A stretch of DNA of 64,000 nucleotides. Origin: an uncultured delta proteobacterium. GTDB taxonomy: Bacteria; Myxococcota_A; UBA9160; SMWR01. Positions within the stretch are counted from its first letter, which is position 1. Each line of letters opens with the position of its first letter. Shown here one piece after another: positions 2,639-50,407 of this stretch. A model generated the notes under the pieces. The model had not been told where the DNA came from, ran no database searches, and was given only the letters and a program-made list of their open reading frames with translations. The stretch covers positions 768,001 through 832,000 of the forward strand of contig CAWHTE010000007.1 of NCBI GenBank assembly GCA_963832165.1, read 5' to 3'. Made by a program: the position numbers and the translations under genes.

Positions 2639-3349
2639 TCAATTGACGGGTTCGAGCTCGACGCGGCGATTCTCGGCGCGACCTTCCGGAGTCGAGTTGT
2701 CCGCGACCGGATTCGACTCACCGAGCCCGCGCGCCTCGATGCGGCCCGCGGAGATCCCGTGCGAGACCAGGTACTCGCGCACCGAGTCGGCCCGTCGCTG
2801 CGAGAGCTTCTGGTTGTACGCGTCCGACCCGTTCGAATCCGTATAGGCGCTGAGGCGCACCTGCTTGTCCTCACAGCGTTGCAGCGCGACGACGGTCTCG
2901 TCGAGCGACGCGGCGGCCTGCGGTTTGATGTCGGACTTGTCGTTGTCGAAGTTGACGTTCTCGAGTCGCACGAGACCGGCGCAGGGATCCGGTTTCGCCG
3001 GCGCGGGCGGCGGTGTCGGGGCTGCCCTCGGTGCGGGAGGCGGAGGCGCGGGCCGCGGCTCGGGCTTCGGCTCGTCCTCCTCCATCAGACTGCAGACGAG
3101 ATAACCGAGGGCAGCGGTGCCGACGGCGGTGCCTGCGGCGATGGCGACCCCTTCCAGCTGGTTCTCGCTGCGGTCGTCGTGGTCATCGGAGTAGTAGGCG
3201 CCGCCAATACCGCCTCCTACGGCGCCGAGGCCGCCGCCGATCAGCGCGCAGACGCCGGGGCTAGGCGGGCCTCCGTTCGTCGCGCAGCCAACCAGCAAGG
3301 CCGCCATCATCAGTGCAAGGCCAGTCCGGAAGAGGGGGTAGTAACGCAT
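2639..3349 (-). CDS. OmpA-family lipoprotein with glycine zipper
   Basis: Lipobox LVGC, Gly-zipper, Pro-rich linker, OmpA C-domain (VNFDNDKS, YTDSNGS, NQKLSQRRA, NRRVEL); AAGGAG RBS. Confidence 0.92.
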   Translation of the reverse strand: MRYYPLFRTGLALMMAALLVGCATNGGPPSPGVCALIGGGLGAVGGGIGGAYYSDDHDDRSENQLEGVAIAAGTAVGTAALGYLVCSLMEEDEPKPEPRPAPPPPAPRAAPTPPPAPAKPDPCAGLVRLENVNFDNDKSDIKPQAAASLDETVVALQRCEDKQVRLSAYTDSNGSDAYNQKLSQRRADSVREYLVSHGISAGRIEARGLGESNPVADNSTPEGRAENRRVELEPVN

Positions 3350-44421: not shown

Positions 44422-45926
44422 CCGCGGCAAGCGCACCGCGCGTCGAGATCGCCACGGGCCGGCTCGAGGGTCGCCGCGCCGAAGGCGTCGATCGCTTCCT
44501 GGGGATTCCGTTCGCGCAGCCGCCCACGGGCGCGCGGCGCTTCCGTCCGCCCGAGCCGGCCGCACCCTGGAGCGGGGTGCGCACGGCCGACGCGTTCGGC
44601 CTCGTGGCGCCGCAGAACGCGCTCGACGCGGGCGCGCTGCCGGGTATGCAGGTGGGCCCGCAGGGCGAGGACTGTCTGTCCCTGAACGTCTACACGCCCG
44701 CGGCCGACGCGGGCCGCCGCCCCGTCATGGTGTGGATCCACGGCGGCGCGTTCATGATCGGCGCGGGGTCGCAGCTGATCTATGACGGCGCAGCGCTCGC
44801 GCGGCGCGGCGACGTCGTGGTGGTGACGATCAACTACCGGATGGGCGCGCTGGGATTCCTCGACCTCGAGACGTGTCTGGGCGGCGAGTTCGCGGGCTCG
44901 GGCAATGTCGGGTTGCTCGATCAGATCGCAGCGCTCGCGTGGGTGCGCGAGAACATCGAGCGCTTCGGCGGCGACCCGCACAACGTCACGATCTTCGGCG
45001 AGTCGGCAGGCGGCATGAGCGTGGGCACGCTGCTCGGGTGCCCGGCGGCGCGCGGTCTGTTCCAGCGCGCGATTCCGCAGAGCGGCGCCGCGCACAACGC
45101 GCACGATCGCGAGACGTCCGCACGCGTGGCCGACTACTTCCTGCGCGCGCTCGGCACACGCGACGCTCGAGCGCTGCGCGATGCACCGGTCGAGCGGATC
45201 CTCGCCGCGCAGCTCCAGTGCTCGCTGCACGTGGGCGAGCTCGGCGTGCTGCTCGCGTTCCAGCCCTGCGCGGGCCATGCCGAGCTGCCCGAGCCCCCGC
45301 TCGCGGCCGTGCGCGCGGGCAGCGCAGCCGGCGTCTCCACGCTGATCGGCACGACGCGCGATGAGTGGCGCTTGTTCGAGTTCCTCGATCCCAGGTTCGG
45401 TTCGATGGACGACGCGGGCTTCCTCGCGCGCGCGGTGCAGCGCGTCGGCGAGGCGGCCCCGGTGCTCACCGACGTCTACCGCAAGGACGCACCCGAAGCG
45501 GCGCCGGTCGACCACTTCTCGGCGTTCGAAACCGACCGCGTGTTCAGGGTGCCCGCGGTGCGCCTCGCGGATGCTCAGGCCGCACACGGGCCGGTGTATG
45601 GCTACGAGTTCGCGTGGCCGTCGCCCGCGCGGCGGGGCGCGCTCGGCGCGTGCCACGCGATCGACATCCCGTTCGTGTTCGGAACGCTCGGCGCGCCCGA
45701 CATGGCCGCGTTCTCGGGCAGCGGCCCGGCGGCCGAGCGCCTGTCGGAAGCGGTGATCGACGCGTGGGCCGCGTTCGCGCGCGGCGGCGATCCCGCGTGC
45801 GCCGCGATCCCGCGCTGGCCGCGCCACGACCCCGCGACGCGCCCGACGCTGATCATCGACCGCGAGTGCCGCGTCGAGATGGCGCCGCGCGACCGCACGC
45901 TGCGCGCGTGGGACGAGCTCCTGTAA
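44418..45926 (+). CDS. Type-B carboxylesterase
   Basis: EDCLSLNV, IHGG, FGESAGG, GACH. Confidence 0.93.
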   Translation: MTAASAPRVEIATGRLEGRRAEGVDRFLGIPFAQPPTGARRFRPPEPAAPWSGVRTADAFGLVAPQNALDAGALPGMQVGPQGEDCLSLNVYTPAADAGRRPVMVWIHGGAFMIGAGSQLIYDGAALARRGDVVVVTINYRMGALGFLDLETCLGGEFAGSGNVGLLDQIAALAWVRENIERFGGDPHNVTIFGESAGGMSVGTLLGCPAARGLFQRAIPQSGAAHNAHDRETSARVADYFLRALGTRDARALRDAPVERILAAQLQCSLHVGELGVLLAFQPCAGHAELPEPPLAAVRAGSAAGVSTLIGTTRDEWRLFEFLDPRFGSMDDAGFLARAVQRVGEAAPVLTDVYRKDAPEAAPVDHFSAFETDRVFRVPAVRLADAQAAHGPVYGYEFAWPSPARRGALGACHAIDIPFVFGTLGAPDMAAFSGSGPAAERLSEAVIDAWAAFARGGDPACAAIPRWPRHDPATRPTLIIDRECRVEMAPRDRTLRAWDELL

Positions 45927-46208
45927 CGAACCCCTTCCCGCGGGCTTCGCATTTCGGCCCCGGCGCGCCTCGCTCTTCTCACTCGATCCCCAACGTGATC
46001 GCGCTTCCCGTTCGATCCTGGCGCGCCCCCGCAGGTGCGCACCGTCCGGATCTCTTCCCACCGCGAGCGCCGGCGGGGCGCCCGGGGGACGGGCCGAGTT
46101 CTCGCGCCTAACCCCGCGATTTCGCTCATGTGGTCTTCGCCCGCACGCGCGGCGAGTCAGCGTACGCCCGCGCCGGGCTCGCTCCCGCGGGCGCTCATCC
46201 TGGTGAGC

Positions 46209-46230
46209 GAACTGGATTCAAATCCAGTTC
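46209..46230 (-). repeat. Palindromic repeat, copy 3 (orphan, inverted)
   Basis: GAACTGGATTCAAATCCAGTTC, the reverse complement of GAACTGGATTTGAATCCAGTTC. Confidence 0.8.
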
Positions 46231-46424
46231 ACGGCCGCAACTCCGCGGGTTGTTCGACGACTCGCCCAGGATGGCGACCCGAGGCGACCAAGAAACAATT
46301 ATCCAGCGAAATTTTCGCAGCCTAACTCCCGAACCCGCAGTGCAACTCGGCGAATCTCCGACACGTTCCCCGATCGCCCCGTACAATAGGCTGCGAGCTC
46401 TCGCAGTATTCGCTGCATGGGAGC

Positions 46425-46446
46425 GCAAGCTAATAAGTAGTTAGGC
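46425..46446 (+). other. attI-like integron recombination site
   Basis: GCTAATAAGTAG|TTAGGC: a GTTRRRY core with no paired attC arm, at the head of the array; nested inverted repeats upstream (46304..46415). Confidence 0.6.
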
Positions 46447-46459
46447 GGCCGAGAAGCGA

Positions 46460-46958
46460 ATGCTCCGTTTCCCAGTCTTCGCCATCGCCCTGTTCTCTGT
46501 TCTGTCATCGCTCGCCCACGCTGCGGAGCCCACGAAGGCGGAGCGGATACTCGTCGAGAAGGCAGCCCCGGCGCCTCACCTTGTTCGCAGCCGGAGGGCC
46601 CATTCGGTCCTACACCGTTTCCCTAGGCGGCAATCCGGAAGGTCCCAAGGAGAGAGAGGGAGACGAACGCACACCGGAGGGGCTCTACTCCATCAATGCT
46701 CGAAACCCCAAGAGTTCCTTCCACCGCTCCCTTCAGATCTCGTATCCCAACCCCAAGGACCAAGCCCGCGCCGCCGCCGCGGGTGTTAACCCCGGGGGCC
46801 TCATCATGATCCACGGCATTCGCAACGGGCTCGGTTGGGTCGGCCGCCTCCATCGATTCCTGGATTGGACGGACGGTTGCATCGCGGTCACCGACACGGA
46901 GATGGATGAAATTTGGGAATTGGTCCAGGTTGGTACTCCAGTAGAGATCAAACCTTGA
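46460..46958 (+). CDS. Cassette 1: L,D-transpeptidase (YkuD) family (frameshift near 46568)
   Basis: Signal peptide, GPK..EGD.RTPEG.Y, ISYPN..D, IHG...WTDGCIA. Confidence 0.88.
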
Positions 46959-47121
46959 GCAGTCGGCCGCCTAACAAGGGATCATAAGTAGGTCACGTCC
47001 TCGATCGAGGCGCGCTGCATGGGAAGGCAGCATCGAGGCGCGGTGGCGGTCTCCTCCGCTGGGGACATGCTTCGGGTTGAAACACGACCTGGGCATGGAC
47101 GCCCAACGAAGGAGGACCGCA

Positions 47122-48176
47122 ATGGAACGCTATCTCGGAGCCGACGTGCACGCCGCGAGTGTCACGTTCTGCGGGTTGGATGCGTCGGGGAAGCAGATCC
47201 GGCGCGACGTGGTGGAGACGAATGGGAAGGCGCTCGTGGGCTACCTCCAATCGTTCGCGGGGAATCTGCACTTGTGCATCGAGGAAGGCGAGTGGAGCCA
47301 GTGGCTCTACGAGATCCTCTCGCCCCATGTGGACGAGCTCGTCGTGTACCGCGGTGAGTGGAAGCCGGGCCAGAAGAGCGACGCGATCGACGCGCATGGG
47401 CTCGCGGAGAAGCTGCGCACCGGGGGGATCAAGCGGCCGGTGTACAAGGACGCGAAGCTCTTCACGGCGTTGCGCGATCGGGCTCGGACGTACACGATGG
47501 TGACCCGGGACGTGGCGCGGGTGAAGAGTCGACTGAAGAGCTTCTTTCGGTCTCGCGGCCTGCCGTGTGCGGGCGACGCGCTGTACAAGCTCGAGGAACG
47601 GGCGAAGCGTGCGCAGGCGCTGCCGCCGGCGACACGGGAAGCCGTCGAGCTCCTGGGACGCGAGCTCGATCAGCTCGAAGCGCTCAAGGCCGAAGCGGAA
47701 GCGGCGATGCTGCGCGAGTCGCATCGGCATCGGATCGCGCGGATCCTCGAGACTGCGCCCGGGCTCGGTCCGATCCGGGTCGCGCAGATGCTGCCGATCG
47801 TGGTGACCCCGTACCGCTTCCGCACCAAGCGGCAGTTTGGGCCTACTGTGGCTTTGGGGTCGTGATGCGGTCGTCGAGCGACTGGGTGCAGGACCAGGGC
47901 CGATGGGTGAAGGCTCGGGTCGTGCAGACGCGCGGTTTGAACTTCAACCACAACCGGATGCTCAAAGCGATCTTCAAGGGCGCGGCCACGACCGTCGTCG
48001 CGCACTGCGGACCGAATCCGCTGCGCGAGGGCTACGACCGGCAGCTCGAGAACGGCACGAAGCCGAACCTGGCCAAGCTCACGGTGGCGCGGCAGATCGC
48101 CGCGATCGTGCTGGCCATGTGGAAGACACAGGAGGAGTACGACCCCGGGAAGATCCACAATCTCGTCACCCACTGA
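47122..48176 (+). CDS. IS110-family recombinase/transposase (frameshift near 47838)
   Basis: DEDD: YLGADVH, IEEG, KSDAIDA; PGLGPI; F.TKRQ.WAYCG...RSS; GLN...N..LK..F; VARQIA. Confidence 0.92.
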
Positions 48177-48500
48177 TCGCTCTGCATCGACGGAGCATCG
48201 TCTGCTACAGCGAGATCTGGATCTCCGGGGCACAGGGTCGAGGGGAAGCATCCGTGCCAACGCGTGGCCGCGACTGCGGTTGCAGGCCCAATAACAAGGA
48301 TATGCCCCCTCGCAGGACCGAATGAAGCGATGGCCTTCGAGGCCCCGATGGAAGCATGGTTCGCAAGCCCGCACGCTTCACGGCCCGAGGAGAACGCGGA
48401 GGAGGATGGCGGATGGACCCGTACGGTGCCGATCGATCGAATGATGCCTGGACGTTCGACGCCGCTAGGTCGAATAACGGAGTACCATGCTCTTGACATC
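48177..48500 (+). ncRNA. Putative bridge/seek RNA of the IS
   Basis: ~330-nt structured non-coding end; two GGCC..GGCC hairpins followed by ATAACAAG (target-like) and GATGGAAG (donor-like); boundaries approximate. Confidence 0.72.
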
Positions 48501-48638
48501 GCCTACTATGGAAGGCGCTCTAGCTGACCGGCCTGCGTTCTATCGGAATCTGATAGAGTGTGGCAAGGCAGCTCGGGTGGCGTTGCGGAAGGTTCCCGCT
48601 GGCCGCCAGCTGAGCGCCGATCCGTTGGGCGGCGTGAA

Positions 48639-48989
48639 GTGAGCCGAATCGCGAGAGTGCTCTCGATGGTTCTTCTCGCTGCGTGCGCCTGCGGAAATCC
48701 CGCCGGCTTCGCCGACGTCACCCCCGCGTCTCCGATCTTTTCTCGCCCTTCTCTTGATCCGTTTGGGGGGTGGGATTGCGAGCCGGTTGGCGTCGTGACG
48801 GTTCCAGCCCGCAGCGTAGGTTTCACCGACAAGTATTTCGGGTTTGCCGAAGATGAGTTTCACCAGTCAGTGACAACTCAAACAAAGCGGCTCGGGGCGA
48901 TTCTTGTTGTTATGAGCGAAGAAGCTGATCTCGAGGCTATTGCATCGTCGGGCGAGCCTTTCCAGGCTTCCGCCTACCGCTGCAGGTAG
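48639..48989 (+). CDS. Cassette 2: hypothetical lipoprotein
   Basis: ORF fills the space between attC1 and attC2; signal + LAAC lipobox. Confidence 0.65.
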   Translation: MSRIARVLSMVLLAACACGNPAGFADVTPASPIFSRPSLDPFGGWDCEPVGVVTVPARSVGFTDKYFGFAEDEFHQSVTTQTKRLGAILVVMSEEADLEAIASSGEPFQASAYRCR

Positions 48990-49001
48990 GTTTCCCACGC
49001 C

Positions 49002-49158
49002 GCCCAACAAGCGGTTGCAGCTGGCGGCCGCCTGCTTTGGTTGCAGTGCGGCGTCACACGGCCGACGGCCGCCGGCCCGGTGGTTGACGCGCAGCGGCCG
49101 CCGGATTGATACTCGGAGACACGCGGGGCGGCTGTAGCTGAACCGCGATCCGTTGGGC
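49002..49158 (+). other. attC site 2
   Basis: GCCCAAC-AAG-CGGTTGCAGCTG-GCGGCCGCC...GGCGGCTG-TAGCTGAACCG-CGATCC-GTTGGGC. Confidence 0.88.
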
Positions 49159-49178
49159 AGCGAAACTTGGGGTAGTGG

Positions 49179-49460
49179 ATGGCCGAATCGCTCGTCGCGG
49201 GCTTGGAACTCATCCGCGAAATCGCGCGGGCCCTCGCAGATCGACCGTCGTCGAGGGTTGCAGCGATCAGTCGGATTCTGGGAGTGGGATTTTTCTATCT
49301 TGTGCTCGGAGCGCTTGGTGCGCTCGCTCTGGACTTTGGTCCGCCACGACAGGTCGTCGTTGTACTCGTATTTTCCCTACTCGCCGCACTTTCTTGCAGT
49401 CTCGTTTGCCTCCTTTCGCGTTTGCGCTCGAAGACTCGACTCGACCCATCCGGTGATTGA
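49179..49460 (+). CDS. Cassette 3: small two-TM hypothetical protein (probably 3'-truncated)
   Basis: Two hydrophobic segments; ORF runs into the attC3 remnant. Confidence 0.5.
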   Translation: MAESLVAGLELIREIARALADRPSSRVAAISRILGVGFFYLVLGALGALALDFGPPRQVVVVLVFSLLAALSCSLVCLLSRLRSKTRLDPSGD

Positions 49461-49531
49461 CGCTCCGCGGCCGCCGGGTTGATACTCGGAGGTACGCGGG
49501 GCGGCCGTAGCTGAGCCGCGACGCGTTGGGC
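49450..49531 (+). other. attC site 3, right half only
   Basis: Closely similar to the 3' half of attC2 (CGGCCGCCGG.TTGATACTCGGAG..ACGCGGGGCGGC.GTAGCTGA.CCGCGA..CGTTGGGC); no RYYYAAC arm. Confidence 0.8.
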
Positions 49532-49544
49532 GACGTGATTCGAG

Positions 49545-49961
49545 ATGAAGACTCATCTGACAGCGCTCACGGCCGTATCCCTCGGTTCGCTCGCTTCAGC
49601 GTGCGCTTCGTCGACCGACGCGCCGATCCACTACTCCCATCCGCCCGCGATCCAGGTCGACTATCCGGATGTAGCGATGCCTACCGTCTCCACCCCAGAC
49701 TTCATGCCGGAGGTCGTCCCCGAAGCGACCGTTCCGCTCAGGACTCCGGACGCACCCGCGTCCACGGCGTTCATTTGTGGTGGCATTACGATCGCGCCAG
49801 CTCCTGAGCTCTACGGCACGACGTGGAGAGTACGCTCGATCTCGAGTACGCGGACATCATCGCAAACGCGTCTCACCGAGGAAGAACGCTACTTCTCGGA
49901 TTGGTACGACGACCTCAAGCAACCAACTGTCATCTTCCACTTGGAACCCGTGTACCGATGA
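49545..49961 (+). CDS. Cassette 4: hypothetical Pro-rich lipoprotein
   Basis: Starts 14 bp after GTTGGGC; signal + ASAC lipobox-like motif. Confidence 0.55.
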   Translation: MKTHLTALTAVSLGSLASACASSTDAPIHYSHPPAIQVDYPDVAMPTVSTPDFMPEVVPEATVPLRTPDAPASTAFICGGITIAPAPELYGTTWRVRSISSTRTSSQTRLTEEERYFSDWYDDLKQPTVIFHLEPVYR

Positions 49962-50407
49962 AGCTCGTCCAGGAGTTCACCCTCACCGCAACGCTGAAGC
50001 CGCCGCTGCCGATCGGGGCCGGCCCGATCGGTACGCGCATGTACTACGAGGTGATCAGCGGAGCGATCACCGGCGAGCGGCTGCGCGGGACGCTGCTCGG
50101 CGGCGGCGAATGGGCGCTGATCGGACCGGACGGCTTTCTGAGGATCGATGTGCGTCTGCAGGCCGAAACCCACGATGGAGCCTACCTCTACATCCAGTAC
50201 ACCGGCCTCCTCGAATTGAACGAGGCTGTTCAGCGTGCGCTCGCGAGCGGCAAGGGCACCGACTTCGGCGAACAGTACTTCTTCACGAACCCGCGTATCG
50301 AGACCGGCGACAAGCGATACGCGTGGCTCAACACGACCTTCTTCATCGGCGAAGGTCACGCCCTTCCGGCGCTCGGCGTCGGGTATCGCGTCTGGCGCCC
50401 GGCTTGA
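49958..50407 (+). CDS. DUF3237 family protein
   Basis: IG.GP.G.R, GERLRG, GGEW, DVR...ETHDGA, P..ETGD.RY.WLN. Confidence 0.88.
   Translation: MKLVQEFTLTATLKPPLPIGAGPIGTRMYYEVISGAITGERLRGTLLGGGEWALIGPDGFLRIDVRLQAETHDGAYLYIQYTGLLELNEAVQRALASGKGTDFGEQYFFTNPRIETGDKRYAWLNTTFFIGEGHALPALGVGYRVWRPA

Follow-up and report, generated by a model that had tools for sequence, protein, structure and literature searches.

A predicted two-loop guide RNA in the non-coding 3' end of a divergent IS110-family insertion sequence located in attC-like sites

The stretch of DNA considered here, hereafter the window, comprises 64,000 nucleotides (nt) of contig CAWHTE010000007.1 from an uncultured delta proteobacterium (GenBank assembly GCA_963832165.1; positions 768,001 to 832,000, forward strand), and it harbors an IS110-family insertion sequence (IS) on the plus strand at positions 46979-48514, a length of 1536 bp when the right-hand copy of an AG core is included. 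As judged from comparative sequence analysis, the non-coding 3' end of this IS very probably encodes a guide RNA of the bridge RNA/seekRNA type, about 125 nt in length and furnished with two loops, which would steer the element into integron attC sites, with a DEDD/Ser recombinase and the RNA together joining a circular form of the IS to attC at the dinucleotide AG. Direct support comes from the conserved structure of the guide region and from the co-variation of its guide strands with the target flanks and with the ends of the IS. An RNA-guided recombinase aimed at attC had already been proposed in the first-pass annotation of this region; the co-variation bears this interpretation out, as do the two insertions in this genome, both of which occupy one and the same position of an attC-type site. 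Both the mechanism and the RNA-guided targeting of attC by an IS are already in print (PMC11187229, PMC11208160), and what differs here is the divergent lineage, its sense orientation, and the spread of targets among close relatives.

The element and its two insertions

The layout of the element resembles that of the IS1111 group, in which the 5' end is short and the non-coding 3' end is long: 338 nt lie downstream of the transposase gene (48177-48514) versus 143 nt upstream of it (46979-47121). The attC consensus is RYYYAAC for R'' and GTTRRRY for R', and the attC character of the sites in the window was read from their motifs against this consensus. They open with GCCTAAC or GCCCAAC, close with the complementary GTTAGGC or GTTGGGC (GCCTAAC...GTTGGGC and similar pairs), possess imperfectly paired inner arms, measure 126-157 bp, and form arrays behind open reading frames (ORFs) of the same strand, for instance the YkuD-domain ORF at 46581-46958. 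The IS is placed between R'' and L'' of one such site (Table 1), in sense orientation to the cassette array and on the same strand as its cassette ORF.

The left junction reads GCCTAACAAG/GGATCAT, with position 46979 as the first G of the IS (it can also be written GCCTAACAAGG/GATCAT), and the right junction reads CTACTATGGAAG/GCGCTC, with position 48514 as the last G. AAG is present at both junctions, and the dinucleotide AG is the most economical core; uninterrupted sister sites contain a single AAG (GCCCAACAAGCGGTTGCAGCTG at 49002, and GCCCAACAAGGCGTTGGAGCTG beside the second copy of the element). This second copy resides on another contig (C5) of the same genome, differs from the copy in the window by a single T, encodes an intact transposase of 351 amino acids, and occupies the same position of a different attC-like site (GGCCTAACAAG/.../GCGCTGCAGCTG), both copies being located between GCCTAACAAG and GCGCT. 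Since the position within attC is the same and the sites differ, the two copies represent two independent insertions into one kind of target. A further stretch of 280 bp in this genome (contig C11, 218806-219085) shares 68% identity with a central part of the transposase gene and is probably a remnant or a distant relative; the covariance model described below found no match at this locus.

Table 1. Features of the insertion sequence, its predicted guide region and the interrupted attC-like site (positions in the window)
Feature	Positions	Strand	Remarks
Left part of the interrupted attC-like site (R'' GCCTAAC + AAG)	46969-46978	+	Downstream of the YkuD cassette ORF 46581-46958
Left end: 8-nt extension GGATCATA and subterminal inverted repeat AGTAGGTCACGTC	46979-46999	+	
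Transposase gene	47122-48176	+	Frameshifted in the window copy; one-base length difference in a T run near 47836
Predicted bridge/seek-type RNA, two tandem modules (each stem, internal loop and hairpin)	48238-48362	+	Covariance model 127.4 bits
Putative target-binding module; stems GAGGG/CCCTC and GCAT/ATGC enclose the loop; hairpin 48266-48288	48240-48311	+	Helices 1-3: 100%, 99.2% and 87.9% of cells paired
Target loop 5' strand (TGCCAACGCG)	48255-48264	+	Complementary to top strand of right target flank (attC L'' side)
Target loop 3' strand (TAACAAGG)	48292-48299	+	Same sense as left target flank and core (attC R'' end); 8/8 identical to 46972-46979
Putative donor-binding module; stem GGACCG/TGGTTC, hairpin GGCC-TTCGA-GGCC	48315-48362	+	Helices 4 and 5: 94.3% and 100% of cells paired
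Donor loop 5' strand (AATGAAGCGAT)	48321-48331	+	Putative left-end guide; reverse complement GCTTCAT vs GGATCAT 5/7
Donor loop 3' strand (ATGGAAG)	48348-48354	+	Sense of right end and core; identical to 48508-48514
CGCTTCA, complementary to donor loop 5' strand	48375-48381	+	13-33 nt after the donor module
Conserved hairpin GTTCGAC/GTCGAAT (48454-60 with 48469-75), about 20 nt before TTGACA	48454-48475	+	7 pairs in 19 sequences, 2 with compensatory changes
Right end: TTGACA, subterminal repeat, ATGGA, AG core	48493-48514	+	
Right part of the interrupted attC-like site (L'' GCGCTCTAGCTG ... L' CAGCTGAGCGC ... R' GTTGGGC)	48515-48630	+	

A conserved structure in the 3' end

Homologs of the element were collected through a protein-based scan with one genome per species, which yielded 20 loci of 40-91% identity, and through a DNA pattern scan of metagenomes, which yielded 121 stretches that are mostly chance matches. 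Thirty-five distinct sequences with the same scaffold were extracted, and 32 of them were aligned with the window; L014 and L020, which carry long hairpin inserts, and L114 were excluded. The RNAalifold consensus consists of two tandem modules with 27 base pairs, 14 of which show compensatory changes. Of all pair cells on this consensus, 95.2% are paired, versus 30-51% after a shift of the 3' partners through 1-3 columns, and none of 500 shuffles reached any of five structure measures. The two parallel modules discerned in the first-pass annotation are thus both conserved structures, and the strings it had named are found in their places: TGCCAACGC (48255-63), ATAACAAG (48291-98), GAGGGG (48240-45) and CCCCTC (48306-11) in the first module, and ATGAAGC (48322-28), GGCCTTCGAGGCC (48332-44) and GATGGAAG (48347-54) in the second. 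The scaffold is conserved, and the four loop strands are the most variable columns of the alignment; one end of the IS hence contains the conserved, structured non-coding region that characterizes elements with a bridge RNA or seekRNA.

A covariance model with a seed of 33 homologs gave one full-length match, on the transposase strand, in 46 of the 144 sources, and 13 of these 46 lie outside the seed. All 16 protein-found loci with an intact 3' part were matched, the four unmatched ones (L012, L015, L017, L023) being truncated elements, and the model found no match in the loci that stem from chance pattern matches. Among the 121 loci of the metagenome scan (L024-L144), only 28 are real family members by this model; the others, chance matches to a 16-base pattern, were rejected as such. 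On one metagenome contig (L088/L089), two exact matches to the 19-letter search pattern occur 666 bases apart and are accompanied by no covariance-model match. A candidate guide in a 'third module' was likewise discarded: a direct repeat (48316-44 and 48435-63; 72%) presents ATGATGC, which fits the left end at 6 of 7 positions, and this motif is not kept in L004, L005 and L010.

Base pairs of the G-U type are frequent on the plus strand (at column pair 90/128, 30 of the 32 rows have G-U), and a transcript with the sense of the transposase gene is therefore indicated. That the conserved structure acts instead as single-stranded DNA, in the manner of the guide sequences of IS200/IS605 elements, is very improbable: the frequent G-U pairs are confined to one strand, the protein belongs to the DEDD-type IS110 family, for which RNA guides have been shown experimentally (PMC11187229, PMC11208160), and an HUH transposase is absent. 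In favor of a DNA guide it can be said that none of our tests separates RNA from DNA directly, and that the lone contig from an RNA library that covers the region may itself represent DNA. This 1011-nt contig originates from an oligo-dT library of soil RNA, is about 90% alike, covers 47647-48537, and continues into an attC-like flank; such contigs carry neither end nor strand information, carry-over of DNA is possible, and we regard the contig as a hint of transcription and not as evidence for it. None of the sequencing runs contained half of the element's sequence words, and the runs compared consist of contigs, which are uninformative on the ends, the strand and the level of an RNA.

Loop strands, target flanks and IS ends

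The 3' strand of the target loop, TAACAAGG, had been recognized in the first-pass annotation as the attC sequence to the left of the insertion, and the identity is complete over all eight bases. Within the 64-kb window this string occurs only twice, at the left junction and in the loop, where shuffled sequences lead one to expect 0.11 occurrences, and none of 100 shuffles contained two matches. Among relatives, left ends were located by an inverted-repeat search, which sufficed for few loci, and otherwise by eye; no left end was found in L035 or L073. At 16 of the 17 loci with a readable left junction the 3' strand matches 7-9 of the last 10 bases of the left flank, as exemplified by the pairs of guide and flank GTGTAAGG with CTGTAAGG (L008), TCCATAGA with TCCATAGA (L009), and GGCAAGAC with GGCAAGAC (L011). 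When each of nine guide classes is represented by a single member, the mean match is 7.56 of 10 for cognate versus 3.85 for non-cognate combinations, a value that was reached in none of 20,000 permutations.

The 5' strand of the target loop was compared, as its reverse complement, with the right flank of the 32 loci that have a right end (37 rows less L032, L048, L053, L062 and L114, in which no right end was usable). Cognate pairs agree on average at 6.56 of 10 positions, versus 4.35 for 984 non-cognate pairs (standard deviation 1.08), and 0 of 10,000 permutations attained it; 11 of the 32 loci match at 8-10 positions (e.g., 10 in L014, and 9 in L104, L108 and L143). The loop strands are hence complementary to both strands of the target and change with it, the signal of the 5' strand being weak in the attC-type subset, where this strand agrees with the occupied sites only beside the core (GCG-T in the window). 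The pairing with the L'' side that had been suggested for the window stands only in part, as the flank of the occupied site matches poorly (see below), whereas an attC that is separated from the second copy by one cassette and is itself unoccupied (contig C5, 197471-197595; locus L002, minus strand) contains GCGTTGG, which is complementary to the 5' strand at all seven positions. This unoccupied site fits both target strands (CAACAAGG and GCGTTGG) better than either of the two occupied sites does.

In the donor loop, the 3' strand ATGGAAG is identical to the right end of the IS plus core, just as had been claimed, and the agreement with the right end is general: of 32 loci, 27 match at 7 of 7 positions, four at 6, and one at 5, and the observed mean was reached by none of 20,000 permutations. 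Eleven classes of this strand occur (ATGGAAG, ATAGAAC, ATAGAAG, CTAGAAG, CTGGAAG, TTAGGAG, TCAGGAG, TTGGAAG, ATGGACG, ATGGAAA, ATGGATG). One could still argue that the loop matches are due to chance, or are leftovers of captured flanking DNA devoid of any targeting role, as they are short (7-8 nt) and as GATGGAAG taken alone is not rare in the window (4 matches versus 1.59 expected). We consider this explanation scarcely credible in view of the permutations (0 of 10,000 and 0 of 20,000), the fixed places of the matches within a conserved structure, and the confinement of TAACAAGG to junction and loop; the comparative data already contradict it.

The check on homologs envisaged in the first-pass annotation, that loops should follow flanks and ends, thus turned out positively for both target strands and for the donor 3' strand, none of whose values was reached by permutation. 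For the donor 5' strand the picture is less clear, as this strand (GAAYGAAG) hardly varies and offers little variation for comparison. Where the left end reads GCATCAT, the reverse complement of the strand agrees with it at 6 of 7 positions, in the register also used by the target 5' strand; changes that follow the left end are confined to distant relatives (in L019, GCTTGAT with GCATGAT; in L011, TCTTCGT with ACTCCGT). The segment CGCTTCA at 48375-48381 may form a pseudoknot or a mask with this strand, or a multi-loop like that of IS1111 orthologs, in which the donor-binding bases often lie in such a loop (PMC11208160). Matching changes in strand and downstream complement are seen in L083 (GAAGGG/CCCTTC), L098 (GAAGTC/GACTTC), L032, L067 and L080 (GAAGCC/GGCTTC), and also in L071, whereas they are absent in L009, L014, L020, L005 and L035, so that the co-variation is partial overall.

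These properties lend themselves to a different reading, which we judge to be unlikely: the first module alone would be the guide, a seekRNA for the target, and the second module a protein-binding scaffold whose 5' strand pairs with 48375-48381, the donor being known mainly through protein contacts with the subterminal repeats. The near-invariance of the donor 5' strand, its match of only 5 of 7 to the left end and the changes shared with the downstream complement speak for such a scaffold, and the part of the seekRNA paper at hand (PMC11187229) gives target matches only. A pure scaffold would not lead one to expect that the donor 3' strand tracks the right end across 11 classes. The donor 5' strand tracks the left end in L019 and L011, its match has the register used by the target 5' strand, and the downstream co-variation fails in the five loci just named. 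A guide with two loops is the preferred interpretation.

A number of results weigh against a two-loop guide RNA directed at attC. The right flank matches at no more than 5 of 10 positions in 11 of the 32 loci, among them the window (4) and the second copy (5), and the mean is 5.11 in the nine attC-type loci as compared with 7.13 in the other 23 loci and 4.35 in non-cognate pairs. L045 is at odds with its left flank (GCCGCGGGTAGG versus the target 3' strand CCCTTGTCCAGG; 5 of 10) while its right flank matches at 8 of 10 positions; it may be a rearranged copy. For each locus, the right end was taken to be the first TTGAC behind which stands a string with at most two mismatches to the donor strand, a procedure that favors agreement and through which L062 was lost, yet this filter does not explain 27 perfect matches. 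Mismatches of the donor 3' strand occur in L013, L083 and L098, where the loop reads ATGGATG and the end ATGGAAG or ATGGACG, and in L009 and L137, where the end reads ATGGAG; all of these differences are found at or beside the presumed core. In the case of the donor 5' strand, ATGAAGC matches the left end GGATCAT in the window at only 5 of 7 positions, a match as weak as originally described, neither position 2 of the left end (G, C or A) nor the U/C change in the strand is tracked, and 27 of the 35 relatives contain a complement of at least 5 nt in the 50 nt that follow the module.

Other objections concern the RNA, the protein and the array. The folding energy of the single sequence is ordinary (z score +1.11 for 48177-48511 and -0.39 for 48236-48366), and because it is unremarkable the case beyond chance rests on the homologs and not on the window sequence alone. 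Rfam gave no match within the element. The transposase scores 112.9 bits against NF033542, the NCBIfam IS110 equivalog, which is below the cut-off of 140 despite an E value of 1.7e-32 over the full length. Finally, the best score for an integron integrase (TIGR02249) in the 89%-complete genome is 72.6 bits against a cut-off of 265; the cassette arrays are either clusters without an integrase, or the integrase gene is located in the missing 11% of the genome.

We envisage the action of the element as follows. Through its target loop, the RNA would contact both strands of attC: the 3' strand, which has the sense of the R'' end and AG core, would bind the bottom strand, and the 5' strand (CCAACGC) would bind the top strand on the L'' side. 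In the donor loop, the 3' strand has the sense of the right end and core, and the 5' strand is the likely, if least supported, partner of the left end. With this RNA bound, the DEDD/Ser recombinase would link the IS circle and attC at the AG that they have in common, the circle junction would provide a split promoter (TTGACA-17-GATCAT), and the element would come to lie between R'' and L'', sense to the cassette array. In this scheme we infer that the guide is an RNA and is bound by the protein, that a circle with a junction promoter exists, and what part the donor 5' strand plays.

Transposase, array and relatives, and comparison with known systems

The intact 351-residue protein contains the two domains of IS110-family transposases (PF01548, 39.5 bits with a cut-off of 29; PF02371, 37.4 bits with a cut-off of 21.3). 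D8, E54, D87 and D90 are invariant in seven relatives of 40-72% identity, as is S252, which together with the likewise invariant R250 is part of a C-terminal motif YCGF-x4-R-S/T-S, as read within these seven relatives; the spacing from G244 to S252 fits the pattern G--P----S(G), with Val in place of Pro and Ser/Ala in place of Gly. By its two domains and by D8, E54, D87 and D90, the transposase is classed with the IS110 family, of which it is a divergent member. No chain among solved structures matched it in sequence at an E value of 0.01. The best tblastn identity among 72,556 plasmid records is 28% (range 25-28%), and the ten most frequent organisms include no enterobacterial genus. Relatives abound in environmental data, with 3041 protein clusters at an E value of 1e-20 or better among 8000 candidates scored, annotated as 'transposase' at most. 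The window copy is one T shorter near 47836, and the extra T of the C5 copy recurs in run X1, on a DNA contig; the frameshift may reflect either true variation or a mistake of the assembly.

At the ends of the element, the left-end sequence G-N-ATCAT is conserved in relatives, and each of the 32 right ends keeps TTGACA, followed by 16 nt that run to the end of the core. The subterminal 13-bp repeat agrees with the reverse complement of 48495-48507 at 10 of 13 positions (11 of 13 in L006), and the extensions measure 8 nt on the left and 5 nt on the right, plus the AG core; for IS1111 elements, subterminal repeats of 11-13 bp and extensions of 7 bp (left) and 3 bp (right) are given (PMC11187229). 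Brought together in a circle, the ends would form the junction TTGACA-17 nt-GATCAT, in which TTGACA might serve as the -35 half and GATCAT as the -10 half of a promoter. A split junction promoter is known for this IS family (PMC11187229, PMC13626964), and no promoter-like site was found inside the integrated element. The hairpin at 48454-48475, with the consensus GTTCGAYG...CRTCGARC, contains many G-U pairs on the plus strand.

The cassette region spans 46320-49531 on the plus strand and comprises at least three attC-like sites (46320-46446, the IS-interrupted site 46969...48630, and 49002-49158), with a possible further R' at 49520-49531 and with short ORFs between the sites, one of which carries the YkuD L,D-transpeptidase domain. 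The bottom strand of the uninterrupted site at 49002-49158 folds into an attC-like hairpin with unpaired bases (z score -4.34). Just upstream of the first site, a sub-threshold Rfam match resembling tRNA-Sec is located at 46189-46267 on the plus strand (33.7 bits versus a gathering score of 47; E value 0.00048); ARAGORN detected no tRNA in 45000-50000.

The metagenome-assembled genomes (MAGs) that host relatives derive from soil and are labelled Gemmatimonadota, delta proteobacterium or Acidobacteriota. All nine attC-type loci (the window, the second copy and seven relatives) are oriented from R'' to R' of their attC. In a tree of 14 transposases, whose root is unknown and which contains no ISfinder reference, the six attC-type elements with an AG core form one group (support 88/92) that is nested among relatives located in other targets. 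L016, a relative with 40% identity from an Acidimicrobiia MAG (1390-1430, 2998-3130), is also inserted in attC (GCCGAAC/.../CAGGCGCTGCACCTG...GTTAGGC); it cuts directly after AAC, has AC in both loops (TTGCCTAAC and, as reverse complement, CAAGGCGCTTT), and groups with a non-attC element across the deepest split of the tree. Two copies of yet another relative (L019 and L021) reside in a palindromic repeat that is not attC-like (GGGCGGGAGCGAC ... GTCGCTCCCGCCC).

An origin of attC targeting in this clade that is independent of the IS1111-attC group is likely from these comparisons. More tentatively, and with the odds in our view against the scenario as a whole, this deep IS110 clade from soil might have acquired attC targeting without any link to the clinical IS1111-attC group, and on two or more occasions (in the AG-core lineage, which cuts after AACAAG, and in L016, which cuts after AAC and has an AC core); the complement of the donor 5' strand might be a mask or pseudoknot that gates donor binding, and copies might persist mainly in imperfect attC sites because well-matched ones are re-excised.

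As both lineages insert in sense orientation, transcription that reads through from the cassettes could provide the element with its transposase and guide RNA. An IS placed between R'' and L'' would presumably block the folding of attC, and the cassette would be frozen. For integron biology, the element suggests that chromosomal attC arrays of soil bacteria are targeted by an RNA-guided IS that apparently has no detectable identity to the clinical IS1111-attC group and has the opposite orientation. The clade also provides an example of natural reprogramming, in that relatives of 57-91% protein identity combine one RNA scaffold with differing loop strands and correspondingly differing targets, and for the mining of bridge recombinases it offers compact two-loop RNAs of about 125 nt from a large, unnamed family.

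The closest known counterparts are IS1111-type elements, which carry their RNA downstream of the transposase gene, and among which ISKpn4, ISPst6 and ISPa25 target attC with seekRNAs that match it, as published in 2024; the available portion of that report describes target matches only (PMC11187229). The IS1111-attC group (ISPa21, ISPst6, ISKpn4, ISPa25) shares with the element in the window a DEDD transposase, a long downstream non-coding region, an RNA segment complementary to the top strand that lies 5' of the one for the bottom strand (PMC11187229), and insertion near the 5' end of attC (PMC3001079). In contrast, the classical members of that group are inserted antisense to cassette transcription (PMC3001079), whereas the window copy lies sense to its cassette ORF and departs from the orientation that defines the subgroup; the proteins are far apart, the lack of a match to ISKpn4 being deduced from the identities of 28% or less in plasmid records; and close relatives of the element are spread over differing targets.

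Like the bridge RNA of IS621, a member of the IS110 group, the predicted RNA has a pair of internal loops, and the two guide strands of each would read the opposite strands of target or donor; in both systems target and donor share a short core, and the promoter would be divided between the ends. The predicted RNA differs in its location in the 3' end instead of the 5' end, in the reversed order of the guide strands, and in a core that is apparently AG and not CT. Group IIC-attC introns are likewise mobile and home to attC near its 5' end (PMC3001079), but they are retroelements with a reverse transcriptase, lie antisense, and lack a DEDD recombinase. The bridge RNAs predicted for IS1111 elements, which are situated in the right end and have loops that complement target and donor (PMC11208160, Durrant et al. 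2024), are alike in position and in their loops; in the consensus fold found here the internal loop is simple, possibly supplemented by a helix with 48375-81, as compared with the frequent multi-loop reported there, and the clade described here may already be included in the set of that study.

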